DNA from: a candidate division WOR-3 bacterium
Lineage (GTDB): Bacteria > Hydrothermota > Tepidihabitantia > SM23-42 > JAOAFX01
Length of the DNA: 45,910 nucleotides
Assembly (NCBI GenBank): GCA_039802145.1
Contig: JBDRWA010000001.1
Location: 1-45,910 of the forward strand
Direction: 5' to 3'
The notes under the pieces were generated by a model that did not search any database, was not told where the DNA came from, and saw nothing but the letters and a program-made list of their open reading frames with translations. Below are positions 13,524 to 42,451 of the stretch, in pieces. The position numbers and the translations under genes were made by a program. How positions within the stretch are numbered: position 1 is the first letter of the stretch; each line of letters opens with the position of its first letter.

Positions 13524-14186
13524 ATGCCCAGAATAGCTCGTGGAATAGCCGACGGACTGACCTATCATATACTTAACCGAGGTAATGGTGGTCAGACGGT
13601 TTTTAGAAAAGACCAAGACTACAGGGTTTTTATTGAGTTAATGTCCTATGCAAAGTCTGAATTCAATATCAAAATATTTGCTTATTGTTTAATGCCTAAT
13701 CATTTCCATGTGGTTTTGATGCCGACAAAAGGTGAAAATTTAAGTAATTTTATGCATCTCGTTATGACGAGCCATGTGCGGCGCTATCATAAACATTATG
13801 GCACGAGCGGACATATATGGCAGGGAAGGTATAAAAGTTTTATTATCCAGGAGAATAACTATTTGTTAACAGCATTAAGATATGTTGAAGGAAACCCCGT
13901 GAGAGCGAATTTGGTGAAGTCAGCAATAAAATGGGAATGGTCATCGCATAGAGAGAGGATTAAATTAAAACCCAATGAATTATTGGCTGAACCCCCTATT
14001 GATTTACCATCCAACTGGACTGAATTCGTTGATGAACCATTATCTTTAAATGACTTAGAAAAAATAAGGAACAGCGTTATTCGCCAAGCCCCCTATGGTG
14101 AATTAGAATGGCAGATTAGTATCTGTAAAAATTTGAACTTAGAATCAACAATTAGACCAAGAGGCAGGCCTGCAAAATGGAAATAA
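13524..14186 (+). CDS. REP-associated tyrosine transposase-like (IS200/Y1 HUH) protein
   Basis: HUH motif LMPNHFHVVL and catalytic-Tyr helix LRYVEGNPVRANL. Length and layout are typical of single-copy RAYT-type genes. Confidence 0.8.
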   Translation: MPRIARGIADGLTYHILNRGNGGQTVFRKDQDYRVFIELMSYAKSEFNIKIFAYCLMPNHFHVVLMPTKGENLSNFMHLVMTSHVRRYHKHYGTSGHIWQGRYKSFIIQENNYLLTALRYVEGNPVRANLVKSAIKWEWSSHRERIKLKPNELLAEPPIDLPSNWTEFVDEPLSLNDLEKIRNSVIRQAPYGELEWQISICKNLNLESTIRPRGRPAKWK

Positions 14187-21140: not shown

Positions 21141-21248
21141 GTAATTATAATATGTATCGCTGTAACCAGTAATTAACTATTGCGATTGTGTTGTGTGTGG
21201 TTAATTTGGGACACATTTATATGTAAATATTTAGAGAAAGGGGGTATT

Positions 21249-23807: not shown

Positions 23808-23905
23808 TTATCATCTGAAAGGAGGTGAGAATAAATGAATTAAAATATGGGGATGCTGCAGTACAGGATCAATTCAAATAAAGAGAATTGAAAAAGGAGG
23901 TGTGT

Positions 23906-26900: not shown

Positions 26901-27970
26901 TTTCGCCCATTTCTGCGGACTTGCACTTCTACGGCAATTCTGCTTATGTCTCAGACGATGGTAGATATCCGGGTGAGTTTGATTATGCTAATAAGATTCA
27001 AGTTGATTATGCCCAGGCAGCAGGATACTACACCCGTTACGGTGATGTCCTAACATTACTACAAGAAGGAGATAATAAATTTGTAATAATGAAATCCGGA
27101 GACGAGATAAAACTTACATTTGATGCTCAAGAACTACCGCCATTACCAGACGGCTGGAAACGAGACTTCATCTTCGCAACAAAAGGATTCTATAAGGCGA
27201 TTAGACCTGGCCGTGCCTATGCTTACTCTGTAGATCCATTACCTTTCTACGGAATGCGCGCAGATTTATCTGCAAATGGTGTTGGTTATTATCCTTATGA
27301 CCCAGCACCGGGACTATTCGGTTCACTGATCGGAAGAATTTATGCAAGGATTGCCTGGGGTTATCCATTTTCACTTAAAGATGCGATTACACTGATTAAA
27401 AACCATATTACGAATAAGGTGAATAATAAATATCCTGCAGAACTTACCGAATACTGCCAGTTATGGAATACGAGAAGGGTAGAAGGTTATTATCCTGCCT
27501 ATTATGCGAATTTCTTACCGCATAAGAACCTTGAGAAAGTGCCTTTAACCGAAAGAGAAGGCAAATGGCCTATGCACCTTGCCTCGCTGGGAATTCCATT
27601 CGGACCGCATTCATTATACAGCAACTATGTCCGCCTCTGGATGGTGACACATAATCCACTCGTTGTAGTTGAGGAGAAACCTGCAAATCAAGCAAAGGGA
27701 TTTTCATTTATTGCCCTTCAGAATCCGTTCCGCAATATCGCTAAATTCGAATACAATCTGCCAGTGAATACAAAGGTCAATATAAGCGTATATGATAATA
27801 CAGGAAGACTGGTGCGTCGTCTCGTAGATGCAAAACAGGATAGAGGCAGTTATCAACTGGAATGGTCGGGCGATGATGAGCAGGGTAGAAAGTTGTCGAC
27901 TGGAGTCTACTTTGTAAGATTTGAGACCGACCAGACGAACACGGTCCAGAAGGTGATAATGCTGAAATAA
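23906..27970 (+). CDS. Giant secreted S8 peptidase: I9-like propeptide, complete S8 catalytic set, ~800-aa uncharacterised extension, T9SS C-terminal sorting domain
   Basis: I prefer the start at ATG 23906 (GGAGG 5 nt upstream) over the track TTG at 23888. Motifs: GHIDTGV (Asp), DDHGHGTHTMG (His), SQGNSGP (oxyanion Asn), MQGTSMASPHVTGG (Ser). Tail QNPFRNIAKF...VYDNTGRLV...GVYFVRF...VIMLK. Confidence 0.88.
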   Translation: MFNLLLAFLFVARPVIPGKMTPELAQILHNTSDNEKILVIVHMATEYPYDQLRGMTPVEKCKVFENIAFNSQREIVEYLKSLPDEFAEVGGQFWIFNGFHLKATKALIYELAKRDDIWFICHNGIVKLDADVLPEADITGRAPEWNIKKIKADSCWAEGYSGSGIILGHIDTGVLTTHEALTGKWLSPYWIDGVSGQANPYDDHGHGTHTMGTICGGDGPGPFANDVGVAYGARYIPTKAFDSGGSGQYAWIDTCMQYLARLKSQGVDIRAIGNSWGSSGQTDLHWWDIILNWKNLDVFPVFSQGNSGPNSGTANAPGNYPTAIGVGATDSLDVIASFSSRGPAPNQSPWNDPQYWYYPTWNLLKPDVSAPGVAVRSSYNNGGYTSMQGTSMASPHVTGGTAILLEKNSTLTPDQLFEIFYTTCDQPSGGGPYPNNNYGWGRINLYRALQQTPPPTPHHNIRVQTIVVPGTREREYTVIQPQVRFKNAGTFDENNIPVVCQIKRGTTTVYTSNRTIGSLLQNKDTLITFDNFTVGSCGNHYTAFGIANLSTDTLHYDDTLKKNFVAARVYEVTTPDCDAWKIANADSGTPPAPTNPAWIPATTTEKQQISALDNQWWVTAGSPQDTTHMDVQLYGFRLTGVPDTAIEEMTLEWWGHHGSGVRDQLRFRLWNTLTSSYSLKITQQNVTSDQLFSIIIPDDSAEAYVGNDGFLYACVANDVYIKSSCPLLFTHNKNKSYFIGDIVTGGDIGTWIGRVMGVNLYAPPDYDEYVKIDGEKLQAVNGKYHLSINEMLQEISYIDEVTLYAVDHPAGSDIYPHEALLWPGYQGLKIFNGYEKPIYKVFNEKGQDITDYLNAIDRNFAPFELTGLVGFAKPFTITLDLGELNDPDNTVLCLYGSTRFPDAGKIKEVSDIYEAYKKGMKVQNPTVEVYNNGKWQKIKSCGMPAGHKKVVTYPLFDENGKSIFKGKDYKLRITFYHEVYLDKIWITTDTDNNYRIAALSPISADLHFYGNSAYVSDDGRYPGEFDYANKIQVDYAQAAGYYTRYGDVLTLLQEGDNKFVIMKSGDEIKLTFDAQELPPLPDGWKRDFIFATKGFYKAIRPGRAYAYSVDPLPFYGMRADLSANGVGYYPYDPAPGLFGSLIGRIYARIAWGYPFSLKDAITLIKNHITNKVNNKYPAELTEYCQLWNTRRVEGYYPAYYANFLPHKNLEKVPLTEREGKWPMHLASLGIPFGPHSLYSNYVRLWMVTHNPLVVVEEKPANQAKGFSFIALQNPFRNIAKFEYNLPVNTKVNISVYDNTGRLVRRLVDAKQDRGSYQLEWSGDDEQGRKLSTGVYFVRFETDQTNTVQKVIMLK

Positions 27971-28114: not shown

Positions 28115-29320
28115 ATGAAATCAATAAGTAAGATTTGCTTGTTTTATAAAGGCAGGTCAAATTTTTTAAAAGAATTTTTTTACCTTTTTAATAAGGGTGG
28201 GATAAAATCTACTATTTCTTGTCTGCGACTATTCAAGACCGCATTAAATAACGAAAAGATAAATAAATTTAACGATAAAGCAGTCCTTTTCTTTCTCATT
28301 CCACCTATCCCGTCAGAGAGTTTTAGACGCCATTTAAGGCATTATTCAAACAAATTTATTTTGCGAAACGGAAATAGTTTCTTTGGACAGGCATTCATCG
28401 CGGTCAATCGCAAATGTCCGTTCAATTGCTGGTATTGTAGTGCAGGCAACACGCAGGATAATGAATTGAGTTTAGAAGAACTGGATGGAGTTATTTCGCT
28501 GTTTAAAGACTGGGGTGCAAGCACAATTGTCTTTACCGGTGGTGAACCACTTTTGAGGGATGATATAGATATTTTGATCTCAAAATATCATGAAGATCTG
28601 TCATTTGTTATATTGACTTCTGGTTATGGATTGAGTGTAAAAAGGGCAAAAAGACTGAAAGATAACGGTTTGTTTTCAATTTCTATCAGCCTCGATCACT
28701 TTGACCCTAAAATCAATGACCGGTCAAGGGGTAGGGAAGGGGCATTTGACATTGCCCTTGATGCCATAAAGAATGCCAAGAGTGCTGGATTGTATACAGT
28801 CGTCCAGACCGTAGCAACAAGCGAATTGTTAAGGGATGGAGAGACAGAAAGATTCATAGACTTTGTAAAAAATTTAGATGTTGATGAATTATTCCTCCTT
28901 GAACCGCTCTGCACTGGAAGATTGTTTAGTAAAGAAAGAGATATTTATTTGAATGGCGAAGAGGCAGAAAAATTGAAATTATTACATATCCAATCAGCGA
29001 AAAAGAAAAACGGTTTGAAGATTATTACATCCCCATTCATTGAAGATACTACAAAATTTGGCTGTGGTGCTGGTACCCAGCATATCTATGTTGATACGAG
29101 TGGCGATCTCTGGCCCTGCAATTTTCTCCCTGTATCATTGGGGAATCTCTTAAGAGAACCTGAGGCTGTGAAGATAAGACTTAAGAAATATTTCAGTAAA
29201 CCATGTGGTTTCTGTATTCTAAAGAAGTACCACAAAGAATTATTAAAGTATTATGATAATGGATTACCTATAAAGTTTGAATGCATAGAAAAGATATTAG
29301 AAAAGATGGATAAATCCTGA
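28115..29320 (+). CDS. Radical SAM enzyme with C-terminal SPASM/twitch-like Cys cluster
   Basis: 401 aa with CPFNCWYC (CxxxCxxC) after a ~95-aa N-terminal extension. GGEPLL motif. The C-terminus GCGAGTQHIYVDTSGDLWPCNF...PCGFC resembles a partial SPASM domain. Confidence 0.8.
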   Translation: MKSISKICLFYKGRSNFLKEFFYLFNKGGIKSTISCLRLFKTALNNEKINKFNDKAVLFFLIPPIPSESFRRHLRHYSNKFILRNGNSFFGQAFIAVNRKCPFNCWYCSAGNTQDNELSLEELDGVISLFKDWGASTIVFTGGEPLLRDDIDILISKYHEDLSFVILTSGYGLSVKRAKRLKDNGLFSISISLDHFDPKINDRSRGREGAFDIALDAIKNAKSAGLYTVVQTVATSELLRDGETERFIDFVKNLDVDELFLLEPLCTGRLFSKERDIYLNGEEAEKLKLLHIQSAKKKNGLKIITSPFIEDTTKFGCGAGTQHIYVDTSGDLWPCNFLPVSLGNLLREPEAVKIRLKKYFSKPCGFCILKKYHKELLKYYDNGLPIKFECIEKILEKMDKS

Positions 29321-29348: not shown

Positions 29349-32156
29349 ATGATGGTAGGTAGTGCATTAATCTTAGTCTTTACGCTGCTACCACAGATTC
29401 CAGGTAAGTTGACCCCGGAACTTTTAGAAATACTTAATCGCTCTTCACCCGGTGAAAAAATCTTTGTCATTGTCCATATGAGTACTGAATACCCATATGC
29501 TGAGATTGAAAACTTGCATCCTCAGGAAAAATGTAAAATCTTTGAGCAGGTTGCCAGAAATTCCCAGAAGGATATTATCAATTATCTTAAAAGATTGCCC
29601 GTAGAAAAGGCAGAAGTCCTTAAGCAGTTCTGGATTTTTAATGGCTTCCATCTGAAGGCAACGAAGCATATAATCTATGAACTCGCCAAACGTGATGATA
29701 TCTGGTTTATCTGCCATAACGGAATAATAAAACTTGATGATGAGGTTTTGTCAGAATCGGATATTACAGGGCGTACGCCAGGGTGGAATATTATAAAGAT
29801 AAAAACGGATTCCTGCTGGCTTGCTGGATATAGCGGTGCAGGTGTTATTGTTGGACACATTGATACAGGAGTTATGATAGACCACCCTGCCCTTGAAGGG
29901 AAATGGTTATTACCTTACTGGTATGATGCGGTGAATTTTTACCCTAGACCGTATGATGATCATGGACATGGCACTTTTACAATGGGCACTCTATGCGGTG
30001 GTGATGGCTTTGGACCATTCGGTGAAGATGTCGGTGTTGCCTTTGGTGTAAAATATATTGCAACCAAGGCATTTGATTCTCATGGCTCTGGACAATATGC
30101 TTGGATAGATGCCTGTATGCAGTATCTTGCAGATTTGAAGGCACAGGGTGTGAACATTTGTATAATAAATAATTCATGGGGATCTGCCAATGGCTCGGAT
30201 TTACACTGGTGGAATCTCATTCTCACCTGGAAAAATTTAGAAATCTTTGCCGTTTTTGGCACAGGAAGTAGCGGTCCTGGTTCAGGGACGGTTGTTTCAC
30301 CGGCAAGTTATCCCCTTGTCGCCGGAATCGGTGCCACCGATTCCAGTGATAACATAACGAGTTTCTCTTCCCGTGGTCCAGCACCGAACATCTCACCGAT
30401 AAATGACCCTCAATACTGGTTTTACCCGACCTGGAATTTGTTAAAACCAGATTTCTCAGCCCCCGGGCAAAATATTCGTTCATGCTACAATAATGGTGGT
30501 TATGCTAATTCCACAGGGTCAGGAATAACCACGCCCCATGTTGCTGGTGGTGCGGCGATTTTGTTAGAAAAAAATCCGGAACTTACGGTTAATGATATCT
30601 ATGATTTTTTCCGAATTTACTGTGACCAGCCTCCGCAGGGCGCACCGTATCCAAACAATAATTATGGTTGGGGCAGGGTTAATCTCTGGCGCTCTTTACA
30701 AAACATTCCGCCTTTGAATATGCCCAACATTGTTCTCGCCAATGCTTCAGTCGTTAATGACAACAATAGCAATGGTAAACTTGACCCTGGTGAAGATGCA
30801 GGAATTGTTTGTTATTTGAAAAACAGCGGGGGCGTGCAGGCGAGTAATGTCCAGGCAATTTTAAGGACAACATCTAATTATGTTATAATTTACGATTCAA
30901 CATATTTTTATGGCACAATCAGTTCCGGAGATACGGTTGAAAATACATCAGAACCATTTGTGTTAAGTGTATTAGATTCAACACCGCCAGGGCACATTTC
31001 AATTTTCCAATTAACAATCACCTCTGCCGAGACAACTTGGACAAGAAGTTTTTATAAAACGGTCGGTATCGCTCCAGGAACGATTATCTGGGGTCCTAAG
31101 ACACTGCCCAATTTTCCTACAAGCGGAATTGTCTATGGTATTTCCTATGATGCAGCGGATGATAAAATATATGTAGTAGACTTTAATTCACCTCAGATCT
31201 ATTGTTACTCATCGGATAGTTTTGTTACTTACTATGGGACAATTCCTGCGCCAGAAGATAGTCTCACTGACATCACCTATAGCCCTTATGATGATGCATT
31301 GTATGTGATTGGGCTCAATCCTAAAATTGTGTGGAAGATTGATAAGACGACTGGTGCAATACTCCGTCAATTTGATAATCCGGCAATTGACTATCCTGTC
31401 GGTATAGTTTTAAAACCGCATGATACACTATGGTTTGCGGATCGAAGGACTGCTCTTGGTACACCCCAGTTGCTTTATATTGGTGATACATTAGGAAATG
31501 CCAATCAATATAATAACCCGGTCCAGGGATATTACAACTCGCGGTGCCTCGCCTATGACGCGATTGGTAATTCATTTATTCAAGCCCATACATGGTATGA
31601 TTCTCATGGAAACAATTTGGATAGTGCTGGTGTTGTTGAAATAAAAGGTGAACCACCCATGTTGACATCAAATCTTATGCTGTTAAATCCAGCTTGGCAT
31701 ATAAGGGGTGTAGAATTTGACCCGCGGGATGGCAATTACTGGGTTACCATTGCCCAGGTTGGTGGCAGTTTTCCTGTAAGATGGATTGTAAAAGTGAGGG
31801 GTTTTTATACACCGACAACCGCGATTAAAGAAAGAAAAGTCTTCCAGACACAAAAAGGACTTTTAAATATTGTGCCGAATCCATTCCAGAATCACTGCGT
31901 TATTAAATTTCAAATTCCAAGCACCAAATCCCATAATCCAAACGGAAATGTAGGGCAAGGCTTCAGCCTTGCGATATACGATGTAACCGGTAGAATGGTT
32001 AGAGATTTTTCTTGGCTGACGGTAAACGGTGAACGGTCAACGGTTTTCTGGGATGGTTGTGATGATTCTGGTCGCAATTTGCCTGCAGGTGTTTATTTTG
32101 TTAGGTTAGATGTGGATGATTTCAAAAAAGTGGAAAAGGTTATATTTTTAAGATGA
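29349..32156 (+). CDS. S8-like paralogue with substituted nucleophile (probable pseudo-peptidase), NHL/beta-propeller-like region and T9SS C-terminal sorting domain
   Basis: 935 aa, collinear with the 23906 gene through the S8 domain with no gaps around the active site. Asp (GHIDTGV) and His (DDHGHGTFTMG) are kept, but GTSMASPHV is replaced by GSGITTPHV and the oxyanion GNSG by GSSG. Tail PNPFQNH...IYDVTGRMV...LPAGVYFVRL...VIFLR. The gene starts 28 nt after the radical SAM gene. Confidence 0.85.
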   Translation: MMVGSALILVFTLLPQIPGKLTPELLEILNRSSPGEKIFVIVHMSTEYPYAEIENLHPQEKCKIFEQVARNSQKDIINYLKRLPVEKAEVLKQFWIFNGFHLKATKHIIYELAKRDDIWFICHNGIIKLDDEVLSESDITGRTPGWNIIKIKTDSCWLAGYSGAGVIVGHIDTGVMIDHPALEGKWLLPYWYDAVNFYPRPYDDHGHGTFTMGTLCGGDGFGPFGEDVGVAFGVKYIATKAFDSHGSGQYAWIDACMQYLADLKAQGVNICIINNSWGSANGSDLHWWNLILTWKNLEIFAVFGTGSSGPGSGTVVSPASYPLVAGIGATDSSDNITSFSSRGPAPNISPINDPQYWFYPTWNLLKPDFSAPGQNIRSCYNNGGYANSTGSGITTPHVAGGAAILLEKNPELTVNDIYDFFRIYCDQPPQGAPYPNNNYGWGRVNLWRSLQNIPPLNMPNIVLANASVVNDNNSNGKLDPGEDAGIVCYLKNSGGVQASNVQAILRTTSNYVIIYDSTYFYGTISSGDTVENTSEPFVLSVLDSTPPGHISIFQLTITSAETTWTRSFYKTVGIAPGTIIWGPKTLPNFPTSGIVYGISYDAADDKIYVVDFNSPQIYCYSSDSFVTYYGTIPAPEDSLTDITYSPYDDALYVIGLNPKIVWKIDKTTGAILRQFDNPAIDYPVGIVLKPHDTLWFADRRTALGTPQLLYIGDTLGNANQYNNPVQGYYNSRCLAYDAIGNSFIQAHTWYDSHGNNLDSAGVVEIKGEPPMLTSNLMLLNPAWHIRGVEFDPRDGNYWVTIAQVGGSFPVRWIVKVRGFYTPTTAIKERKVFQTQKGLLNIVPNPFQNHCVIKFQIPSTKSHNPNGNVGQGFSLAIYDVTGRMVRDFSWLTVNGERSTVFWDGCDDSGRNLPAGVYFVRLDVDDFKKVEKVIFLR
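31905..31939 (+). repeat. In-frame 7-nt tandem array in T9SS tail, loop 1 (AAATTTC/AAATTCC/AAGCACC/AAATCCC/ATAATCC)
   Basis: Units read directly; they encode KFQIPSTKSHNP. The unit family resembles the arrays at 32335..32383. Confidence 0.75.
31947..31972 (+). repeat. Coding copy of the 26-nt palindromic element (AATGTAGGGCAAGGCTTCAGCCTTGC)
   Basis: 25/26 identical to intergenic 18773..18798. Translated in frame as NVGQGFSLA. Confidence 0.8.
32019..32046 (+). repeat. In-frame 7-nt tandem array in T9SS tail, loop 2 (ACGGTAA/ACGGTGA/ACGGTCA/ACGGTTT)
   Basis: Four contiguous heptamers. The first three differ only at position 6, and position 6 runs A, G, C, T across all four. They encode LTVNGERSTV. 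Confidence 0.85.
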
Positions 32157-32720: not shown

Positions 32721-32833
32721 TATCGGAGCCTCGGTGGAACGGAGCATCGGGGAAACCGAAATGGATTGCATTAGCTTGCTAATGCGCCGTTGTTTAATTA
32801 TTGGAATTTAATCATTGTTTGGGATTTAATTAG

Positions 32834-32864
32834 CGATACAGGCTGCGAAGTCGTAAAACGACGA
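32834..32864. repeat. 31-nt imperfect direct repeat, copy 2 (CGATACAGGCTGCGAAGTCGTAAAACGACGA)
   Basis: 27/31 identical to 32238..32268. Confidence 0.7.
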
Positions 32865-32866
32865 TA

Positions 32867-32894
32867 TTGTAATGATAAAAAAATTGGATATAAT
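32867..32894 (+). promoter_or_regulatory. Sigma70-type promoter (TTGTAA-16-TATAAT) for the KAS III-like gene
   Basis: -35 at 32867..32872, -10 at 32889..32894. A 30-nt leader carries GAAGGAGG. Confidence 0.6.
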
Positions 32895-32924
32895 TCACAA
32901 GTTGACGAATGCGAAGGAGGTCAT

Positions 32925-33953
32925 TTGATAAATAGAACAAAGATTTTATCAATCAGTTATTATGTGCCGGAGCAGGTTGTTAAGACGATTGACATAGAGA
33001 AAAAATTACAATTTAAAGAGCGGCTCGGCATGCCCTATGGTATCTTAACAAAAATGACAGGGTGCAAGGAACATCATGAGGCAAGGGGTAAATTTGATGC
33101 CTCAGATCTTGCTTTCCGTGCTGCACAGAAGGCAATAGAACAAGCAAAAATTAAACCTGAAGAAATTGACCTCGTTTTATTCTGTGCCTGTGACCATGAT
33201 ATAGATGAGCCCGCTACCGTTAATATTGTGGCGGAGAAATTGGGATTGAGAAAAGTCTCTGCATTTGATGTAAAGAATGCCTGCAATTCCTTTATCAACG
33301 GCCTGGATATTGCAGATGCGATGATAAAGAGCGGTAAAGCCAGAACAGTGCTCGTGACTACCGGGGAGGTTATAACTAACTGGGTTTGCTATGATATTAG
33401 GTCAAAGGATGAGCTCAAATATAAGGCAGCGGGATTGACCCTTGGGGATGGTGGAGCGGCAGCGATTGTTGTGCCGAGTAATACCGAGGAATGCGGAATT
33501 CTATATTCCTGTTTTGAAACCTTTGGCGAACACTGGCGGATTGCAACCGTTATGGCTGGTGGAACAATGTATCCAAGGTGCCCTGCTGATTCGGATTTAG
33601 ATGTCACCTATTTTCTTTCAGATAGCGAGAAGATCCTTGCCCTTGCCTTGGAAAAAATACCACCGGTGATGGAAAAGGTGATGAAAAAAGTGGGCTGGGA
33701 ACCCGATGATATTGACTTGGTAATCGGTCATCAGGTTACGATAAAAATAATGCGCGATATATTGAACAAAGTTAATATACCATTTGAAAAAACGGTGGTG
33801 ACTGTTGACCGTTATGGCAATACTGGTGCGGCGAGTATCCCAATAGCCTTGTGCACAGCACTTGAACAGGGAAGATTAAAATCAGGGATGAAGGTCTTAC
33901 TCGTTGGTGGGGCGAGTGGATTTTCTGCAGGTGTTATTGCGATGGTCTGGTAG
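32925..33953 (+). CDS. 3-oxoacyl-ACP synthase III (KAS III/FabH-like) family condensing enzyme
   Basis: I prefer the start at TTG 32925 (after GGAGG and downstream of the promoter) over the track start 32790, whose extra residues come from repeat DNA. Cys-His-Asn candidates are NACNSF, GHQVT and GNTGAASIP. Confidence 0.8.
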   Translation: MINRTKILSISYYVPEQVVKTIDIEKKLQFKERLGMPYGILTKMTGCKEHHEARGKFDASDLAFRAAQKAIEQAKIKPEEIDLVLFCACDHDIDEPATVNIVAEKLGLRKVSAFDVKNACNSFINGLDIADAMIKSGKARTVLVTTGEVITNWVCYDIRSKDELKYKAAGLTLGDGGAAAIVVPSNTEECGILYSCFETFGEHWRIATVMAGGTMYPRCPADSDLDVTYFLSDSEKILALALEKIPPVMEKVMKKVGWEPDDIDLVIGHQVTIKIMRDILNKVNIPFEKTVVTVDRYGNTGAASIPIALCTALEQGRLKSGMKVLLVGGASGFSAGVIAMVW

Positions 33954-35309
33954 GTTTATTTTTATTGATAGGCGATGGCTCCTTATCGTTGCTTGGCGCA
34001 GAAACAAATGGAAGGCAGTTGCCCAGAGAGTTGTAATAAAATTTTTTGTTGATAGAAGTGTTTTTAAAAATCTTTTAAATACTGAACACCAGTTATAGAT
34101 TTTTCTCACCACATATTTCCGAGCATTTTCGAGTTCATTAACAGTCATTCCCAGTGGGTGATAGGTTACTTCAGCGAATGTATAATGTTCCCAGTCTTCA
34201 GGATATCTTGTATAAATTATCCTTCCCTGATTGTATAATTCTTCATATAATTTTGTGCCCGGTAAAGGTGTGAGATAAGTTATCTGGATTGCATTGGCAT
34301 TACTTTTTATTATGTAATCTGTTCGTTCTTTGATTGTCTTCATTGTATCGGTATCCATACCAAACATAAACGCACCGATGACACCGATGCCATATTCATT
34401 GATTCTGCGGAAGATGATTTCCATTTTTTGATTACCAGTTTTAAGATTAAGTTTTTTGTTTATGCTCATCAAAGCCGGTTTATCCTGTGCTTCAATGCCA
34501 ATAAAGAGTAATTTGCACCCACTCTTTGCAGCGAGATTGAGTAATTCTTCATCTTCGCCAAATTTGATTGATGTCTGGCACCACCAGTCTTTTTTAATTT
34601 TCTGTTCAATCATTTCCCGACACAGGTCTTTTAATCTTTCTTTTGATGAAGTAGTATAACCGATTATATTATCATCTACAAAAAAGATTCTTTTTTGAGG
34701 TATTGCCTTTAATTCTTTTATAATATCATCAACCGGACGAAATCGTTGTCTTTTCCCATAGAATGCACTCACGGAGCAGAACTTACAATCCATAGGACAC
34801 CCACGACTTGTTTCAATTGAACAAAAGACATATTGACTTGAAAAGATTGCACGCTTTGGTATCGGCAATTTATTTAAATCAGCCGGCGTCCCCCGGTATA
34901 TCTTCTTTAAATTACCTTTTTCAAAATCGGCAATCAACTCCGGCCAGATATTTTCTGCCTCACCAATTACAATGCTGTCCGCATAATGGAGTGCCTCATC
35001 AGGACTTATTGTTATGTGAAATCCGCCCATTACCACCGGGATTTTTTTGCTCCGGAAGACTTGAGCAATTTCATAAGCCCGTGGCGCCGCAGCAGTAAAT
35101 GCCGTGATACCGACAAGGTCTGCTTCCTGATAACAGAAAGATGCAAAATTTTCATCAATCAGGGTTACTTTCCAATTATCCGGGGTCAGGGAGGCAATAA
35201 TACCCAATCCGAGGGGCTGAAATCTTGTTGCGCGGTTTGCAGTAAGACCAACACGATTTTTGTAAAATCGCTGATTTATCGGATTAATCAGAAGTAGGTG
35301 TCTTTTCAC
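33897..35309 (-). CDS. B12-binding-domain radical SAM protein (class B)
   Basis: 470 aa. N-terminal Rossmann-like B12-binding region (DLVGITAFTAAAPRAYEIAQVFRSKKIPVVMGGFH), then SRGCPMDCKFC (CxxxCxxC). The 3' end overlaps the KAS III gene by 57 nt on the opposite strand. Confidence 0.8.
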   Translation of the reverse strand: MKRHLLLINPINQRFYKNRVGLTANRATRFQPLGLGIIASLTPDNWKVTLIDENFASFCYQEADLVGITAFTAAAPRAYEIAQVFRSKKIPVVMGGFHITISPDEALHYADSIVIGEAENIWPELIADFEKGNLKKIYRGTPADLNKLPIPKRAIFSSQYVFCSIETSRGCPMDCKFCSVSAFYGKRQRFRPVDDIIKELKAIPQKRIFFVDDNIIGYTTSSKERLKDLCREMIEQKIKKDWWCQTSIKFGEDEELLNLAAKSGCKLLFIGIEAQDKPALMSINKKLNLKTGNQKMEIIFRRINEYGIGVIGAFMFGMDTDTMKTIKERTDYIIKSNANAIQITYLTPLPGTKLYEELYNQGRIIYTRYPEDWEHYTFAEVTYHPLGMTVNELENARKYVVRKIYNWCSVFKRFLKTLLSTKNFITTLWATAFHLFLRQATIRSHRLSIKINLPDHRNNTCRKSTRPTNE

Positions 35310-35384: not shown

Positions 35385-35412
35385 TTGACAAATCTGTCAT
35401 TTCGGTTATAAT
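35385..35412 (+). promoter_or_regulatory. Consensus sigma70 promoter (TTGACA-16-TATAAT) for the tRNA and downstream operon
   Basis: -35 at 35385..35390, -10 at 35407..35412. The tRNA 5' end lies 15 nt downstream. Confidence 0.7.
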
Positions 35413-35427
35413 AAACTATATTTATAA

Positions 35428-35500
35428 GGCGGCGTAGCTCAGTTGGCAGAGCAGGAGAATCATAATCTCTGTGTCGGGGGTTCGACTCCCTCCGCCGCTA
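35428..35500 (+). tRNA. tRNA with CAU anticodon (elongator Met, or Ile2 if lysidinylated); CCA not encoded
   Basis: Hand-folded cloverleaf. Acceptor GGCGGCG/CGCCGCT (G1-U72 wobble), U8, D arm GCTC-AGTTGGCA-GAGC, anticodon arm GGAGA-ATCATAA-TCTCT, T arm GGGGG-TTCGACT-CCCTC, discriminator A. It lacks the three G-C pairs and the 1-72 mismatch of an initiator. Confidence 0.9.
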
Positions 35501-35508
35501 TATAAGTT

Positions 35509-38500
35509 ATGGCGTCAATCAAAGAATATCTGAAAGAGACTAACAATTTAAATAAGAGGGTTGAAATTATAACCGAATTTTTGAATAATTCAATTCTTGA
35601 GTTAAATGAACTCATAACTCTTTTAGAAAGTATATTTGACTCATTAAGACGAGCTAATAACTTAATAAATTTTTTAAAAAATTACGCACTGAGTTTTAAA
35701 ACACAAATAGCAAAATTTAGCAATGATTTAGTAGAAGTAGAAAAGAAGATTACATTCTATCAAAATTACCTTGTAGAAATAGAACAACTTATTAGAGAAA
35801 CCAAAGAGATAACAAACAATATAGAGGAAAATGCACATTCTTTTATAAAATTTACGCGGATGATTTCATATCTTGCTGAAAATATTGAAGTGAAGGCATA
35901 CCAGGCAAAAGACGAAGGTAAGGGGCTGGCAATTATCGCCCGAGAGGCATTCAAAATAGCACGTTCATCACAATTATTGTTTCAGCACTTTGATGATTTA
36001 CTTGATATTATAAGAAAAAATGTTGAACCTTTCTCAACAGAAATTGATAACACAATAAAAGATGCCGAAGTTTCTCTAAATAGTTTAATAAATTTGCTTA
36101 CCTCATTAAAGGCGGTCAGTGATTTATTAGAATCGCTACAAAATTTTATTCACGCTATAGAAACCGGAAGCGAAATTTTTTCTGAGATAGAGACGAAGAT
36201 AAATGTACAGGTTGATGGAATAAATAAACAACTGACCGCTTCCCTAAATACGGTGGATGAGATTTCACTGCGGGGTTCCGAGATTTACAATCTCTCTCAG
36301 ATTCTGTATGAACTTTACAGTGTTGTCAGCAGTCCTCGATATGGTCGTGAGAATCCTTATTTATTAGAACAATTTAAGTACCTGATAGATGAAAATATAC
36401 GCATTTTGAAGAAAATAAATATAGGAGTACGCCCTACATTATTATCTTCCGAACTCGTTAATGATTTAAATTATATTACTAAACAAATTAATACACTATA
36501 TGAAATAATTGTGAAGGGCAAGGGAGAAGTTGAAAACTTGGGTATTATAATGGATAAAGTTTCAGTTATAAGATTAGATGTAAACCAAATTTTTTCTACC
36601 CAGGGTATAATTGTTGAAAAGATTAAAGATTTCAAGAATATCTTGGGTGACCAGTTATTGATTATTGAGAGTCTTACTCAGGTCGGTTCAAAAATTATTG
36701 ATAAGCTTAAAACACTTTCTATTTTCTCTCGTCTTGAGCAGAGTCACAGCGTAGAATATAAAGATCTGATCACGCCGATTATAGATGAATTCAGGAATCT
36801 ATCAAATGGCATAAATCTGTCCTTCAGCGCTTTAGAGGACGGCGTTAGCAATTTAAGAAAAATTCTGAACAAATTGGGTGTGTTGGTTATAAAGAAAGAA
36901 GTTGTTCAATTAAATCTGCCTGATTTTTCGCGCATTAAAATATTTTATGATGATGTCGTTAGAGTATTTGAAAATTGTTTCTCAAATATAAAGAGTTTAA
37001 GAAATTTTATTGGGAGATTGGATAAAGCAAACTTCTTACTACATCAGCACTGGATTGTTTATGAAGAGGCATTGAGAGAAATTTTGAATTTTTCCGTATT
37101 ACTACAAAAATTTGTGCCGCAAAAATTTCCTGCGCCCTCAATATCTAAAACGCGGAGTATTTTGAAAATAAATTTGTTTAATGATCCAGTAACACTGAAA
37201 CCTGATTTAAAAACTGATGCAACATCGCAACAGGTAATTGTAAATTATTCTGCTGGATTATTTCAGTTTGGGTTTGGAACAGCTGTTATTCTAGGCCTTT
37301 GCGATGATTACTCAATCTCTGAGGATGGCAGGATTTATACATTTCATATCAGGGATAATTTGAAATATTCAAATGGCCGGAAATTACAGATCGGAGACAT
37401 AAAAGCAGGGATTCTGAAGGGGCTGAGTGGACCTAATCATAATTTGCTGGAGATGATTTTCGGTGCTAAAGATTTTTTAAATTCCCGGGACCCATATTCA
37501 CTCTGGGTTAAAGAGATTGATCAACATAGGATTCAGGTTAAACTTGATTATCCTTATCTGCCATTCCTTGCCAATTTTGCAACCAATGTCGCTGACCCAT
37601 ACATTGATGAAGACCCACCTGTGGGAATGGGTCCGTTCAAAATTTTAAACTGGGAACGCGGTAAAGAAATTATTCTGGAGGCTAACAATTTTTATTTTGA
37701 AGGAAGACCTCAAATTGATATTCTCAAATTTATTATTACAGTAGACGAGGATTATGGATATGAATTATTTAAGAGTGGAGAGTTGTCGATCTATCAACCT
37801 GGTCAAAAGTCACTTAGAAAAATAAAACAGGAATTCCCGGAATTATTGATTATGACACCTGAATTATCAGTTCAGTTCCTCTGTTTTCACTGTCAGAAGT
37901 CACCATTTAATAATAAACTTGTTCGTAAAGCGATTTACTATGGTATAAATGTAGAAAAATTAGTCTCTGATTTGTTGAGTGATATAGCAATTCCAGCCAA
38001 GGGTATATTCCCGCCTTCATTACCTATGTATAATAGAAAACTTGTTGGATACAAATACGATCCACACAGAAGTGTGGAACTATTAAGTCAAGCAGGATTT
38101 CAGGGCGGTTTGCCTGATATATATCCGTTGACAGTGAGTGATACACCAATGTCTATTAAGAGGGCAGAATTTATTAAATCAAATCTTAATGAGATTGGAA
38201 TAAAGATTGAGATAAATCCATTACCCTGGCACGAATTCTTAGAGAAATGTTACCAGGGCAATTTTTTACTTTGCTTACAGGGATGGATTAGCGATACTGG
38301 TGACCCGGATAATTTTCTATATCCCTTGTTTCATACGAATTCTTTTGGCTATGCTGGCAATACATTCTTTTTTTCCAACAATGAGATTGATAAAATGATT
38401 GAAAATGCGAGGCAGATTAGAAATATAAGACAACGTTACAACTATTATCAGTTGATAGAAGAAAAGATATTAGATGAGGCACCGGGTGTTTTTCTTTTTC

Positions 38501-38655
38501 ACTCTTTAAAAAATGTTGTAGTAAAGAAAGATGTGCGTGGTTTTAAATCACATCCTTTAAGCATATTAAGGTTAAAATACACGCAGAAAATTATGGAAGT
38601 AGCAAATAATGAAATTTTATCAGAAATGATTGCTTCTCAGTGTATTACCGTTTAG
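35509..38655 (+). CDS. Signal-less fusion protein: N-terminal chemoreceptor (MCP signalling tip)-like helical domain + long helical linker + C-terminal family-5 solute-binding domain
   Basis: 1048 aa. Residues 122-154, LAENIEVKAYQAKDEGKGLAIIAREAFKIARSS, align to the MCP hairpin-tip consensus [33 protein letters not shown]. From about residue 555 onward the protein looks like a peptide/nickel-type SBP5 (...GPFKILNWERGKEIILEANNFYFEGRP...GWISDTGDPDNFLYPLFH...). No N-terminal hydrophobic segment and no TM helices seen. Confidence 0.6.
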   Translation: MASIKEYLKETNNLNKRVEIITEFLNNSILELNELITLLESIFDSLRRANNLINFLKNYALSFKTQIAKFSNDLVEVEKKITFYQNYLVEIEQLIRETKEITNNIEENAHSFIKFTRMISYLAENIEVKAYQAKDEGKGLAIIAREAFKIARSSQLLFQHFDDLLDIIRKNVEPFSTEIDNTIKDAEVSLNSLINLLTSLKAVSDLLESLQNFIHAIETGSEIFSEIETKINVQVDGINKQLTASLNTVDEISLRGSEIYNLSQILYELYSVVSSPRYGRENPYLLEQFKYLIDENIRILKKINIGVRPTLLSSELVNDLNYITKQINTLYEIIVKGKGEVENLGIIMDKVSVIRLDVNQIFSTQGIIVEKIKDFKNILGDQLLIIESLTQVGSKIIDKLKTLSIFSRLEQSHSVEYKDLITPIIDEFRNLSNGINLSFSALEDGVSNLRKILNKLGVLVIKKEVVQLNLPDFSRIKIFYDDVVRVFENCFSNIKSLRNFIGRLDKANFLLHQHWIVYEEALREILNFSVLLQKFVPQKFPAPSISKTRSILKINLFNDPVTLKPDLKTDATSQQVIVNYSAGLFQFGFGTAVILGLCDDYSISEDGRIYTFHIRDNLKYSNGRKLQIGDIKAGILKGLSGPNHNLLEMIFGAKDFLNSRDPYSLWVKEIDQHRIQVKLDYPYLPFLANFATNVADPYIDEDPPVGMGPFKILNWERGKEIILEANNFYFEGRPQIDILKFIITVDEDYGYELFKSGELSIYQPGQKSLRKIKQEFPELLIMTPELSVQFLCFHCQKSPFNNKLVRKAIYYGINVEKLVSDLLSDIAIPAKGIFPPSLPMYNRKLVGYKYDPHRSVELLSQAGFQGGLPDIYPLTVSDTPMSIKRAEFIKSNLNEIGIKIEINPLPWHEFLEKCYQGNFLLCLQGWISDTGDPDNFLYPLFHTNSFGYAGNTFFFSNNEIDKMIENARQIRNIRQRYNYYQLIEEKILDEAPGVFLFHSLKNVVVKKDVRGFKSHPLSILRLKYTQKIMEVANNEILSEMIASQCITV

Positions 38656-38665
38656 AGGGGGTAAT

Positions 38666-40846
38666 ATGGCAAAAAAGGAAGATATTGATATCCTTGCTGA
38701 CTTAGAGGAAAAACTCGGTCAGCTTGAGAAAGTTGAAAAAGATTTGGCAGCAAAAACCAAGGAATTAAAATCCGCTGAAGAAAAACTTGCCGAAACGTAT
38801 TCTACACAGATGGAGTTGACTAGTGAAGTTGAGGAATTAAAAAAGACAATTCAGGATTTGAAGAGAGAGGAAAAGGCACTGCGAGAGGCTCTGAAGACTG
38901 CTGAAAAAGACAGCCAGAAATTAGGGACACTCCAGCGTGAGGTCGGAGAACTTGCTTCAGAAAAGGATAAATTTGAAACGAAGATAAAAGAATTAAAGTC
39001 AGAATGTGATAAATTAAATAATGAGCGTAATAAGCTTGAAGAAACCATTGAAAAGTTGAAAACACGGCAAGAAGAATTGACTGCGAAGTGTGGAGAGATT
39101 GAATCAAGATATGCTGAATTGGAGAATGCATACCATAATCAAGAAAAATCTCACAATGAGATTAAATTGAGAACAGAGGAGTTGAAGAATGAATATCAAA
39201 GTGTTGAGCAGACCTTAAGGGCTGCGCTTTCTGACTTGAGGGCGACGGAGAAAGATCTGAAAATAATGAATGAAGAGCGTAATGCCTTGAATAAGGAATT
39301 AGGCGCTTTGAAGAAAAATTTAGAAAAAGATGAGGCACGCCATCAAAAGATATTAAGCGAAGTGCAATCATTAACCGAGGAAAAAAATAGATTACATAAA
39401 ACAATTGAAGAATTTAAGAGTGAAGAAAAGGAGTTGGCCGAGCGTTTGGAAGAAATAAGAAAAACATTTGAAGTTGAGAGTGATGAGCTGGGGAAATTAC
39501 AGAAAGAAGTGGCAGAATTACAAGATATGAGAGAAAAATTATACAAAGAGAATGAAGAACTTGCAAATTTGAAAAAAGAGCATGATGCACTCGTTCAGAA
39601 AATTTCAGAATTAAAAAAGGAAGAAGGAGAACTTGTATCCAATATTTCTAATTACCAATTAGAATATAGCACACTTGAAGCGTCATTCAACGAACTGGAT
39701 AAAAAATATAAAAAAGAAGAAAAAGAAGAAAGCGAATTGCAGAAAAATATTGAAAAGATGAAAAAAGAACAGGAAGAATTACATAAGATTGTTGATAAAT
39801 TACGCAAGGAGCAAAAAGAACTTGATCCAATTGTTGCAGAACTCAAGGAAAAAGAGAAAGAATTGCGAAAGATTGAGCCTGAATATAAAAAGACAAAGGA
39901 AGAACATACTCGTCTTAAGGAAGAGGCACAGGAGTTAGGTAAGTCTATTGAACTTGCCAAAAAACGGATTGAGGAACTTGAGCCCCAGGTTGCCAAATAT
40001 GAAGAAATGGACAAGGAGTACAAAAAGAAAAAAGAGGAACTTGAAAAGGTTGAAGCACAATTGCACAAGAGTGAAGACAAGATAAAACATATTGAAGAAG
40101 AGTATGAAAGGATAACAGCTGAATTGCCCAAATTGCGTGATGAATATGAGGAATTGCAACTGGCAATTGAAGAGAATGAAAAGATTAAACAGTTATTGGA
40201 GACGAGAAAGAAAGAACTGGCAATGGTTGAGGATAAGATTACAGACCAGCGTAAGGAACTCTCCACACTTAATGATAAACTTGAGATTTTAAAGAAAGAA
40301 GAGGCAAAGGCTGTAGAAGATTTAAACAAAGAAACAAAAGAATTATTGAGGGAAAGGGATAAGTATAAGGATGAAATTGAGAAGCTGTCAGGGCATAGAA
40401 AAGAGATGGAGGACAAAATTAATGATTTAAAAATTCTCCTTTCGGAAACCGAAGGGAAGATTGAAAAAGCAAGGGCAGTTGAGGCGAATATGATTGCGAA
40501 AATTGAAAAAAGGCGTGAAGAACTGGTGAAGATTAATGATGAAATAGAGCAGAGCAAGATGAAGATTAAGAAGGAATGCGAGGAGGAGTTGAAAAGAGCA
40601 GAATTAGCAAGAGAAGAGATTAAAGAACTTGAGACCAAGAAAAAGGAAGCAGCGATAATTATTGCCAAGGCTGAGGAATTTAAAAAGTCAATTGTTAAAT
40701 TAAAGGAGGAAAAAGACGAACTTGAGAAAACGATTGCTGAAAAGACAAAAGAATTGGAAAAGATTAAAATATTTATCGCCCGACTCAAGGAGGCACAACC
40801 CACCAAATCTAAAGAAGGGGATAAAAAACAGGACATTTCCTTTTGA
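38666..40846 (+). CDS. 726-aa all-coiled-coil, K/E-rich protein (cytoskeletal/scaffold-like, no globular or NTPase domain seen)
   Basis: I prefer the start at ATG 38666 (GAGGGGG SD) over the track start 38630, which overlaps the upstream gene. Heptad-like charged sequence is continuous from end to end. No Walker motif, TM segment or signal peptide. Confidence 0.75.
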   Translation: MAKKEDIDILADLEEKLGQLEKVEKDLAAKTKELKSAEEKLAETYSTQMELTSEVEELKKTIQDLKREEKALREALKTAEKDSQKLGTLQREVGELASEKDKFETKIKELKSECDKLNNERNKLEETIEKLKTRQEELTAKCGEIESRYAELENAYHNQEKSHNEIKLRTEELKNEYQSVEQTLRAALSDLRATEKDLKIMNEERNALNKELGALKKNLEKDEARHQKILSEVQSLTEEKNRLHKTIEEFKSEEKELAERLEEIRKTFEVESDELGKLQKEVAELQDMREKLYKENEELANLKKEHDALVQKISELKKEEGELVSNISNYQLEYSTLEASFNELDKKYKKEEKEESELQKNIEKMKKEQEELHKIVDKLRKEQKELDPIVAELKEKEKELRKIEPEYKKTKEEHTRLKEEAQELGKSIELAKKRIEELEPQVAKYEEMDKEYKKKKEELEKVEAQLHKSEDKIKHIEEEYERITAELPKLRDEYEELQLAIEENEKIKQLLETRKKELAMVEDKITDQRKELSTLNDKLEILKKEEAKAVEDLNKETKELLRERDKYKDEIEKLSGHRKEMEDKINDLKILLSETEGKIEKARAVEANMIAKIEKRREELVKINDEIEQSKMKIKKECEEELKRAELAREEIKELETKKKEAAIIIAKAEEFKKSIVKLKEEKDELEKTIAEKTKELEKIKIFIARLKEAQPTKSKEGDKKQDISF

Positions 40847-40867: not shown

Positions 40868-41698
40868 ATGAGTATTATTTTCTTAATTATTGGTACGGTT
40901 TTTTATTCTTTGAGTTATTCTGTTTTTCTTATTCCTCATAACATTGTTCCGGGTGGCATTTCGGGATTAGCAATGGTATTACATATCCTTTTTAAAACCC
41001 CGGTTGGTATTATGGTAATTCTATTCAATATTCCTTTATTTATATTTGCCATCAGAATTTTAGGTTTTTCCCTTGGTGCTAAATCCGTGATTACAATAAT
41101 TGTGACTAATCTATTGATTGATTTTCTAATTTATACAATTAAAATTCCCACACCAACCGGCAATATCATTCTCGCTTCAATATATGGTGGAGTGATGCTG
41201 GGAATCGGTCTGGGTTTGATATTCCGGGGAGGTGCAAATACCGGTGGAACTGATATTATAGGGCAGATATTGAATCGTTTTACAAATTTCTCAGTTGGAA
41301 TCTGGATATTGATTGTGGATACAATAATAATAACCCTGGCGGGCGTTGTAACAACTTCAATAGAACATGCTCTCCTTGGTTATCTTGCACTTTTCCTTTC
41401 TACCAGAGTTATCGATCTGATACTTGAGGGCATAGACTACGCACGTGCTGCATTTGTCATAAGCGAACAAACAGACAAAATTATTGAAGGAATTTATCAA
41501 AAATTAGGCCGGGGCATTACCATCCTTGATGGTTTTTCACCATATACAAAGACGAAAAGGCCGGTTATTATGTGTGTAATTACCAAAATGGAAACTGAAA
41601 ATTTTAAGAGACTGGTAAAGGATATTGATGAAAATGCATTTGTGATATTGACTGATGTATTTGAAGTGCTCGGTCAAGGTTTTAGACCCCGGGTGTAG
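40868..41698 (+). CDS. YitT-family membrane protein with C-terminal DUF2179-like domain
   Basis: 276 aa. Five or six TM helices with the GGxSG motif (VPGGISGLAMVL, GGANTGGTDI), then a soluble C-terminal domain (...ITILDGFSPYTKTKRPVIMCVITKMETENFKRLVKDIDENAFVILTDVFEVLGQGF). Confidence 0.8.
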   Translation: MSIIFLIIGTVFYSLSYSVFLIPHNIVPGGISGLAMVLHILFKTPVGIMVILFNIPLFIFAIRILGFSLGAKSVITIIVTNLLIDFLIYTIKIPTPTGNIILASIYGGVMLGIGLGLIFRGGANTGGTDIIGQILNRFTNFSVGIWILIVDTIIITLAGVVTTSIEHALLGYLALFLSTRVIDLILEGIDYARAAFVISEQTDKIIEGIYQKLGRGITILDGFSPYTKTKRPVIMCVITKMETENFKRLVKDIDENAFVILTDVFEVLGQGFRPRV

Positions 41699-41707
41699 AA
41701 AATTAAT

Positions 41708-42451
41708 TTGAAGAAATATACTTTAATTATATTCATAATACTGATTTTAATACCATTCTGTCCGGCAAAAAGGAATTTTTTTGCACCAGTTTTGCTGGAG
41801 TATAAAATTATTTATCCTGATATGGCAAGGCAGATGGGGCTGGAAGGTAGGGTGCTCCTTGGTGTGTTGATAAACGAAGCGGGCAGTGTAGAAGAGGTGC
41901 GTATTTTGAAATCTTCTTCCAGTACTGTGCTTGATTCTGCTGCGCTGGAAACTGCTTATACTTTTAAATTTGCACCCGCAATTTTGGGAAATAGACCTGT
42001 AAAGATATGGGCCAATCTTCCTGTTGAGTTTAAATTTGAAGAGCTCAAGCCCGAAATTTGGCTCTTAGAAGTAAAAGAATTGCAAAAAGCCATCGCCCGG
42101 GAATATAAAGAATCACTTATAATGGATTTGTATAAGTTATATAAAAAACTTATATTTTCACCCAAAAAGACTATTGAAATAAAGGTGAACGATTATATAA
42201 GACTGGCAGTATCAGATAGAACTGCAAAACTATGGGATGGATACTGGAGATTATATCCCGCAACATCTATATTGTTTTTTGATATTATATATTGCTTTCC
42301 AGAATCTTATGCACGATTTGAAGCCGAAGAGGAATTTAGAAAATTTTTTGAAAGTGAGGCGATAGCAATTCGCTCCACACTTCCGCAAATAACTGCGGAT
42401 ACAATAATTATACGCCTAAAAAATGCTATAGAAACACTTCAAAATAAATAG
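41708..42451 (+). CDS. TonB C-terminal-domain protein with extra helical C-terminal extension
   Basis: TTG start, N-terminal anchor KKYTLIIFIILILIPF. TonB_C-like YPDMARQMGLEGRVLLGVLINEAGSVEEVRILKSSSSTVLDSAALETAYTFKFAPA, followed by about 130 aa of unknown helical sequence. Confidence 0.7.
   Translation: MKKYTLIIFIILILIPFCPAKRNFFAPVLLEYKIIYPDMARQMGLEGRVLLGVLINEAGSVEEVRILKSSSSTVLDSAALETAYTFKFAPAILGNRPVKIWANLPVEFKFEELKPEIWLLEVKELQKAIAREYKESLIMDLYKLYKKLIFSPKKTIEIKVNDYIRLAVSDRTAKLWDGYWRLYPATSILFFDIIYCFPESYARFEAEEEFRKFFESEAIAIRSTLPQITADTIIIRLKNAIETLQNK

Follow-up and report, generated by a model that had tools for sequence, protein, structure and literature searches.

A predicted cytoplasmic fusion of an MCP-type helical hairpin and a DppA-like SBP5 domain in candidate division WOR-3 bacteria

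Introduction

What could a protein do that joins the signalling hairpin of a methyl-accepting chemotaxis protein (MCP) to a family-5 solute-binding domain (SBP5) without any membrane anchor? The question is raised by an open reading frame (ORF; 35509..38655, +) in a 45,910-nucleotide (nt) stretch of a candidate division WOR-3 bacterium (GenBank assembly GCA_039802145.1, contig JBDRWA010000001.1, positions 1 to 45,910 of the forward strand; hereafter the window). The product of 1048 amino acids (aa) comprises an MCP-like hairpin, a second helical hairpin and an SBP5 domain. A preliminary description, made from the sequence of the window, had proposed a soluble sensor with a binding protein of the ABC type as its input module, while source annotations call the homologues 'ABC transporter substrate-binding protein'. 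From the analyses below we consider, at roughly even odds (about 0.5), that the protein is a cytoplasmic MCP-derived sensor or scaffold, specific to a WOR-3 clade, in which the SBP5 domain serves as input for an intracellular ligand and the partner is something other than CheA/CheW.

Both building blocks are well known and have already been flagged by automatic pipelines. Some soluble MCPs carry C-terminal CZB domains, and a sensor domain C-terminal to an MCP hairpin is therefore not unprecedented. A literature search returned no paper with both 'MCPsignal' and 'SBP_bac_5', and a review of substrate-binding proteins (SBPs) in signalling treats only free periplasmic SBPs. The cytoplasmic fusion, the double hairpin, the re-tooled tip, the conserved coiled-coil partner and the natural variants with and without SBP5 appear to be undescribed.

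Results

The N-terminal hairpin and its tip

Residues 1-273 (hairpin 1; 35509..36327, +) were recognized by Pfam, PDB profile comparison, hhalign and AlphaFold2 (AF2) as an antiparallel helical hairpin of the MCP signalling type, with about 19-20 heptads per arm. Pfam MCPsignal (PF00015) matched residues 91-239 over profile positions 28-169 of 172 (E = 1.3e-7, 32.0 bits), and the relatives P0023 and P0026 cleared the gathering score of 34.6 bits with 34.8 and 37.2 bits. When a profile of the N-termini of 13 family members was compared with the PDB, the top matches were chemoreceptor cytoplasmic domains, apart from one designed coiled coil. The matches included T. maritima TM1143 (2ch7; E = 1.1e-8, query residues 69-268 against chain residues 90-296), TM14 (3g67/3g6b; E about 1e-5) and Tsr (1qu7; 6.6e-4), and the conserved motif fell on the receptor tip in each PDB chemoreceptor match. 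Against 1.84 billion representatives the same profile gave 2235 matches at E<=1e-3; the four non-family matches that were scanned by Pfam were strong MCPs (159-208 bits). Alignment of hairpin 1 with an alignment of bona fide MCP segments by hhalign gave E = 7.7e-22, a value that is partly circular because the MCP alignment was seeded by the family hidden Markov model (HMM).

The AF2 run on the N-terminal 555 aa (mean predicted local distance difference test, pLDDT, 81.3) returned a helix at 2-132, a one-residue turn at 133 inside the motif and a helix at 134-273, with pLDDT of 84-93 around the tip. Some 130-140 helical residues thus flank the motif on each side, against the approximately 120 first estimated. 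In a Foldseek comparison of this model with the PDB, probability was 1.00 for 2ch7, 3zx6 and 3g67, the highest values, and long coiled coils of SMC and toxin proteins ranked alongside. Profile comparison and structure prediction together identify residues 1-273 as a diverged MCP signalling hairpin. The MCPsignal homology, for which the preliminary description had made a match in residues 1-260 the test, holds at the level of the family (PDB and hhalign values above), the single sequence being marginal.

The most conserved part of hairpin 1 is the tip 1 motif (residues 118-154; 35860..35970, +), in which K129, Q132, K134 and L140 are family-specific. Residues 122-154 (nt 35872..35970) read as had been quoted. 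Of their 33 positions 13 agree with the MCP consensus, whereas no other ungapped placement along the chain gave more than 8; for the family consensus the count is 18 of 33. Mean identity within the family was 73% for tip 1 and approximately 53% for its arms. The tip was compared between 148 MCP signalling-domain segments (from 138 non-family proteins) and 23 family members (17 close and 6 distant). Shared with MCPs are L122, A123, N125, A130, A133, G137, G139, A141, V142, A144, E146, L150 and A151, and the backbone motif L-A-x-N...A..A...G-x-G-x-A-V-x-A-x-E is retained in the family. Four residues that are near-invariant in MCPs are replaced in all 23 members: E (frequency 0.99) by K/R129, R (0.91) by Q/H/K/R132, G (0.99) by K/R134 and F (0.99) by L140. 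Further changes are Y/F/H131 in place of an MCP A and E/K124 in place of an MCP L. The four near-invariant residues correspond to E385, R388, G390 and F396 of Tsr, which we take to lie in the trimer-contact and CheA/CheW (kinase-control) surface. The methylation pattern [EQ][EQ]xx[ASTG][ASTG] had no match in residues 1-560. In its replaced near-invariant tip residues and its missing methylation consensus sites the protein departs from a functional chemoreceptor.

The family and the extent of the reading frame

More than 20 close homologues were found (45-67% identity, 1043-1049 aa), with five more distant members (P0023-P0026 and P0028; 1032-1072 aa), and all keep both Pfam domains. The fusion of an MCP-type hairpin to SBP5 is genuine, as had been supposed, and is conserved in more than 20 full-length homologues from independent assemblies. 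All named sources are metagenome-assembled genomes (MAGs) of candidate division WOR-3, and seven GTDB species representatives have the gene. On this distribution the family is best read as restricted to one clade within the candidate phylum WOR-3.

A variant of 548-551 aa consisting of the double-hairpin module alone, with no SBP5 domain, occurs in WOR_3 bacterium SM23_60 and two other assemblies, and its UniRef name is methyl-accepting transducer domain protein. Its gene occupies the same operon, together with the coiled-coil and YitT genes, and its upstream flank shows synteny with the SBP5-bearing locus L017. The helical module and its coiled-coil partner therefore form the core unit, with SBP5 as an add-on that was gained or lost.

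A cleavable signal peptide or an upstream in-frame start, either of which would make the product an ordinary exported SBP, had been an early concern. In the ORF listing each frame opens with the earliest start codon that follows a stop, and no upstream in-frame start is possible for 35509..38655. A tRNA-Met (CAT) gene found by ARAGORN (35428..35500, +) ends 8 nt before the ATG, and both an upstream start and a signal peptide were rejected. Substitutions that separate the window from three homologous loci favour third codon positions from codon 1 onward (for example 38, 23 and 63 at positions 1, 2 and 3 over codons 1-117). This bias shows that the N-terminus is coding, and the protein is conserved from residue 1 across the family. 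In homologue P0017 (L006, 74..3313) the gene caller's 30-residue extension, MLFSGVAQLAEQENHNLCVGGSTPSAAMQF, is the upstream tRNA-Met read as protein, an annotation artefact. P0001 (877 aa) was considered as an alternative, shorter gene and set aside, since it begins at a GTT codon and is a contig-edge fragment.

Upstream of tRNA-Met and the operon lies a putative sigma-70-type promoter-like site, TTGACA-16-TATAAT (35385..35412, +; 12/12 consensus match), which is kept in L001, L004 and L005. The arrangement of tRNA-Met, an 8-9-nt spacer and ATG is kept across the homologous loci. The 8-nt spacer holds no Shine-Dalgarno (SD) sequence before the fusion gene, whereas the next gene has a strong one (AGGGGG). 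This perfect site and SD-less spacer, conserved in homologous loci, suggest that the fusion gene may be co-transcribed with tRNA-Met and translated in near-leaderless form after tRNA processing.

The second hairpin

The simple two-domain architecture first described did not hold, having left residues ~274-560 unaccounted for; a second helical hairpin module of ~250 residues separates the two domains. This hairpin 2 (residues 283-533; 36355..37107, +) was modelled by AF2 with pLDDT of 80-94 as a junction helix at 283-302, a helix at 314-412, a turn at 413-417 and helices at 418-457 and 474-526, after which a disordered linker leads to SBP5. No Pfam match was obtained for it. Its conserved turn, the tip 2 motif (residues 399-432, KLKTLSIFSRLEQSHSVEYKDLITPIIDEFRNLS; 36703..36804, +), stands 281 residues after tip 1. 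Tip 2 shows a mean identity of 70% and its arms ~46%, and it is kept in distant members. Across the protein, the helical arms overall show 45-54% identity, against the values of 73% and 70% for the two tips and 74% for SBP5, the most conserved part.

KLKTLSIFSRLEQSHSVEYKDLITPIIDEFRNLS was aligned by eye, ungapped, to a 34-residue MCP sequence, and hhalign of hairpin 2 with the MCP alignment recovered the same register (E = 0.25). When the 138 MCPs were searched with an HMM of residues 276-555, the highest score was 19.4 bits; a reversed control gave 15.4 bits, and ten heptad-block shuffles gave at most 9.3. In 7 of 9 domain matches residue 418 fell on the exact target residue that is aligned to G137 of hairpin 1. 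A comparison of hairpin 1 with hairpin 2 for internal duplication gave E = 0.076 in a different register and was uninformative. Of these comparisons, only the HMM scores with their controls and the coincidence of tip registers are suggestive, and hairpin 2 is possibly a degenerate MCP hairpin.

The best non-family matches (P0034, P0035, P0036, P0052 and others) lack transmembrane (TM) segments, and each has a pair of canonical MCP tips with a spacing of 283-300 residues, where the fusion protein has 281. Like the fusion protein, the soluble tandem 'double MCPsignal' proteins P0034, P0035, P0036 and P0052 have two tips per chain and no TM segment. Unlike it, they have canonical tips (LALNA...) at both positions, have no SBP5 and are annotated as chemotaxis proteins, whereas in the fusion protein the first tip is altered and the second degenerate. 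Descent of the helical part from a soluble MCP with two signalling hairpins in tandem is likely, on tip spacing and register, though not proven. No che genes are adjacent to the tandem-MCP relative P0181, a result that is uninformative. Two other MCP matches, P0037 and P0152, are short TM-less proteins with two or three canonical MCP tips only 82 residues apart, an unusually compact tandem.

The SBP5 domain and predicted location

The two-lobe binding domain (residues 561-1019; 37189..38565, +) was delimited by Pfam and by alignment with 1dpp. The resemblance of the C-terminal ~490 aa to SBP5 proteins proved to reflect a complete domain: Pfam SBP_bac_5 matched residues 594-945 (E = 1e-66, 226 bits against a cut-off of 32.4), and mature E. 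coli DppA could be aligned with the C-terminal 500 residues over nearly its full length (1dpp, residues 14-497 of 507; E = 4.5e-55). The NCBIfam DppA model (NF043070) scored 184 bits against an equivalog cut-off of 1005, and all NCBIfam equivalog scores were far under their cut-offs. By these comparisons the domain is classed as DppA-like and not as a DppA orthologue.

The invariant motif GWISDTGDPDNF / GWxSDxGDPDNF is kept in SBP5, and its D929 aligns with DppA D408, which presumably anchors the amino group of the peptide. DppA R355, which we take to be the carboxylate partner, aligns with D/N878 in the family (D878 in the window protein). From this alignment the ligand plausibly carries a free amine, but it need not be a classical dipeptide. 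In the full-length AF2 model the SBP5 part had pLDDT of 25-60 on a shallow alignment.

No lipobox, signal peptide or TM segment was found in the 1048-aa protein by the simple criteria of hydropathy, charge and lipobox pattern, in agreement with the preliminary description. Kyte-Doolittle means over 19 residues peaked at 1.41, inside a core strand of SBP5. Residues 1-40 have a net acidic charge and are helical without a hydrophobic core, and SBP5 begins only at about residue 561. A cytoplasmic protein is the location best supported by these predictions. Thorarchaeota protein P0021 (SBP5 and TPR) was considered as an analogue and dismissed as not comparable, its SBP5 being N-terminal and the protein probably an ordinary exported one.

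Neighbouring genes

A 726-aa K/E-rich coiled-coil protein is encoded from 10 nt after the fusion stop (38666..40846, +). The fusion gene is predicted to share a transcript with this gene and usually with one for a YitT-family membrane protein. Orthologues (about 530-735 aa, no Pfam domains) lie 8-10 nt downstream in eight loci, four of them with entirely different flanks, and in the SBP5-less locus L014 the gene follows 87 nt after the stop. The proteins share an N-terminus MAKKEDIDIL.../MAKKEDIDILADLEEKLG.LEK.EKDL, internal SDLRATEKDLK and ELVSNISNYQLEYSTLE, and a C-terminus KIKIFIARLRE.Q...ISF; these termini and internal blocks identify them as true orthologues. NCBIfam and PADLOC matches of the partner were only to the coiled-coil rods of SMC, Rad50, JetC and LmuB, and no ATPase head was found in it. 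A defence system was considered and rejected, as PADLOC had no match for the fusion protein, YitT or TonB_C and gave only the rod-type LmuB/JetC matches for the partner.

The third gene of the cluster encodes a YitT-family membrane protein with DUF2179 (Pfam; 40868..41698, +); of the loci examined, only L016 has no such gene after that of the coiled-coil protein. The fourth (41708..42451, +; Pfam 72.7 bits) encodes a TonB_C-domain protein, present in L001-L006 and absent from L014-L017. Its membership of the system is doubtful, as it is conserved only among close relatives.

The window also contains subtilase (Peptidase_S8) genes, counted as four; three were placed at 59..1648, 23888..27970 and 29349..32156, with 21180..23573 listed beside them. 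The sorting-domain model Por_Secre_tail, of the type IX secretion system (T9SS), matched two of the four above threshold and one just below; among the three placed genes it matched two, one above and one just below. A BNR/Sortilin-like protein with Por_Secre_tail is likewise encoded in the window, and subtilases with T9SS tails fit a proteolytic, FCB-type diderm lifestyle. WOR-3 genomes have been reported to be rich in extracellular peptidases (PMC4411801).

Elsewhere in the window, two paralogues of ~745 aa (14635..16878, -, and 18868..21102, -) combine an N-terminal HTH_28 domain with C-terminal TPR repeats, and L017 encodes a 749-aa relative of the HTH type. An IS200-like Y1 transposase (Y1_Tnp) gene lies at 13524..14186 (+), and an 810-aa fusion (2066..4498, -) joins an MFS transporter domain (residues 4-387) to a spermidine/spermine synthase domain (residues 504-654). 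Genes for a radical SAM protein (28115..29320), a KAS III-like protein (ACP_syn_III; 32790..33953) and a divergent B12-binding radical SAM protein (33897..35309) are kept together upstream of the tRNA in L001-L005 and may form a lipid or natural-product modification cassette.

Discussion

The cytoplasmic MCP-derived sensor or scaffold proposed here could work as follows. The ligand of the SBP5 domain would be a small molecule of the cell interior bearing a free amino group; in organisms as rich in proteases as these, a di- or oligopeptide is the most plausible choice. Closure of the domain on this ligand would be passed on by the helical bundle to the conserved tips of the hairpins, which would then control or organise a partner other than canonical CheA/CheW, for which the co-encoded coiled-coil protein is the leading candidate, and the output probably does not go through CheA/CheW. 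The input by SBP5 would be optional, given the lineage in which this operon encodes only the helical module. A more specific proposal, put forward tentatively and at somewhat less than even odds, is that the double hairpin, the coiled-coil protein and (usually) YitT form a CheA-independent signalling or scaffolding system, in which the tip has been re-tooled for a new partner and a DppA-like domain recruited as an intracellular peptide sensor.

Several observations weigh against this account. The MCPsignal score of the window protein itself is slightly under the Pfam gathering threshold (32.0 vs 34.6 bits), and the designed coiled coil 8qae (sc-apCC-6) scored 5.4e-6 in the same list as the chemoreceptors, a sign that coiled-coil composition inflates helical matches. 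Foldseek of the N-terminal model against the PDB returned nothing at E<1e-3, and the hhalign E-value for hairpin 2 is too high to secure its descent from an MCP statistically. The carboxylate-binding Arg355 of DppA is not kept, so the ligand may not be a dipeptide, and the AF2 model of SBP5 is too poor for the pocket and the domain packing to be read. Much of the synteny comes from related genomes. We infer both the ligand and the partner, and a diverged CheW or CheA might still recognize the conserved tip.

The last point leads to the rival that survives best, a bona fide soluble chemoreceptor forming cytoplasmic arrays with CheA/CheW encoded elsewhere and steering flagellar or type IV pilus motility by intracellular peptides. 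It draws on the clear tip-on-tip homology to MCP signalling domains, the strong conservation of tip 1, closest non-family relatives that are canonical soluble MCPs, and the precedent in E. coli, where DppA is an indirect dipeptide sensor for the chemoreceptor Tap (PMC8050422). The first cultured WOR-3 bacterium, strain sy37 of a different lineage, has pili, yet motility was not observed, and its description makes no mention of flagella or chemotaxis (PMC12285271), which is weak and indirect evidence; the papers on WOR-3 give no chemotaxis information. Against a chemoreceptor stand the family-invariant substitutions at the equivalents of Tsr E385, R388, G390 and F396 and the want of a methylation motif in residues 1-560. 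In addition, no CheA, CheW, CheY, CheR or CheB gene was found in the 46-kb window or the ~20-kb stretches of homologous loci examined, and what invariably adjoins the gene encodes a coiled coil instead of a Che protein. We regard this rival as unlikely. The soluble chemoreceptor or sensor of the preliminary description stands in part: the MCP-SBP5 fusion without an anchor is sound, whereas the replaced tip residues and the missing methylation consensus speak against the chemoreceptor half of the claim. The dispensability of SBP5 in one lineage and the invariant coiled-coil partner had not been part of that description.

Less probable still, to our mind, is a structural or cytoskeletal coiled-coil protein that assembles with the co-encoded coiled coil, possibly anchored by YitT, with SBP5 as a protein- or peptide-docking module. 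Such a role would account for 555 residues of helical hairpins, for a partner that is a pure coiled coil with conserved termini and for a helical module that, in the same operon, can stand without SBP5. However, no part of the protein is more conserved than SBP5, in which the amine-anchoring Asp and GWxSDxGDPDNF are retained, and tips more conserved than their arms point to specific contacts rather than bulk filament packing. The C-terminal ISF of the partner was considered as an SBP5 ligand and rejected, as a simple rule, for lack of co-variation: it does not track the presence of SBP5, L017 having SBP5 without ISF and L014 having ISF without SBP5. Finally, the database names and the strong SBP5 match would suggest a normal, exported substrate-binding protein of an ABC transporter, whose start was mis-called or whose N-terminus is unusually extended. 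This is very improbable given the lack of a signal peptide, lipobox or TM segment, N-terminal 555 aa that are coding and conserved from residue 1, NCBIfam equivalog scores far under cut-offs, and the absence of permease or ATPase genes of an ABC transporter from the window and every homologous locus examined; the label 'ABC transporter substrate-binding protein' is effectively refuted.

The MCP-derived sensor or scaffold resembles known systems in parts. With the MCP cytoplasmic domains of TM1143 (2ch7) and TM14 (3g67) it shares a long antiparallel hairpin, a motif at the turn and the backbone LAxN...A..A...GxGxAVxAxE..xLA; it differs in its replaced E/R/G/F residues, its lack of a methylation motif, a hairpin at the extreme N-terminus that is followed by a second, and a C-terminal sensor domain. 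As in the DppA-Tap route, a DppA-type protein is paired with an MCP-type protein and the amine-anchoring Asp is shared. DppA, in contrast, is periplasmic, free-standing and serves an ABC transporter, whereas the SBP5 of the fusion is covalently joined, predicted to be cytoplasmic, and has neither an Arg355 equivalent nor transporter genes nearby. A cytoplasmic SBP5 used as a C-terminal sensing module is known from the transcription factors SgrR/DsvR (PMC13060122). Their output, unlike that of the fusion protein, is a DNA-binding helix-turn-helix (HTH), and no HTH or SgrR_N domain was matched by Pfam in the fusion protein. Tls of E. coli B2 strains is MCP-like with a non-chemotactic output, sequestering FlhDC (PMC12623472), and in having an output other than chemotactic signalling it parallels the role proposed for the fusion protein. 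It differs in being Trg-like, in its motile host with a full Che system and in its partner and input.

MCP hairpins are regarded as dedicated CheA/CheW couplers and family-5 SBPs as extracytoplasmic parts of transport systems, and their union in one membrane-less chain would extend the repertoire of both folds. The SBP5-bearing and SBP5-less versions in the same operon provide a natural experiment on MCP-tip partners besides CheA/CheW. The misleading database names matter in practice, as metabolic reconstructions of WOR-3 MAGs could wrongly count the family as a component of peptide uptake. If true, the CheA-independent system would give the chemoreceptor fold a new route of output, and this in bacteria that possibly have no chemotaxis at all.

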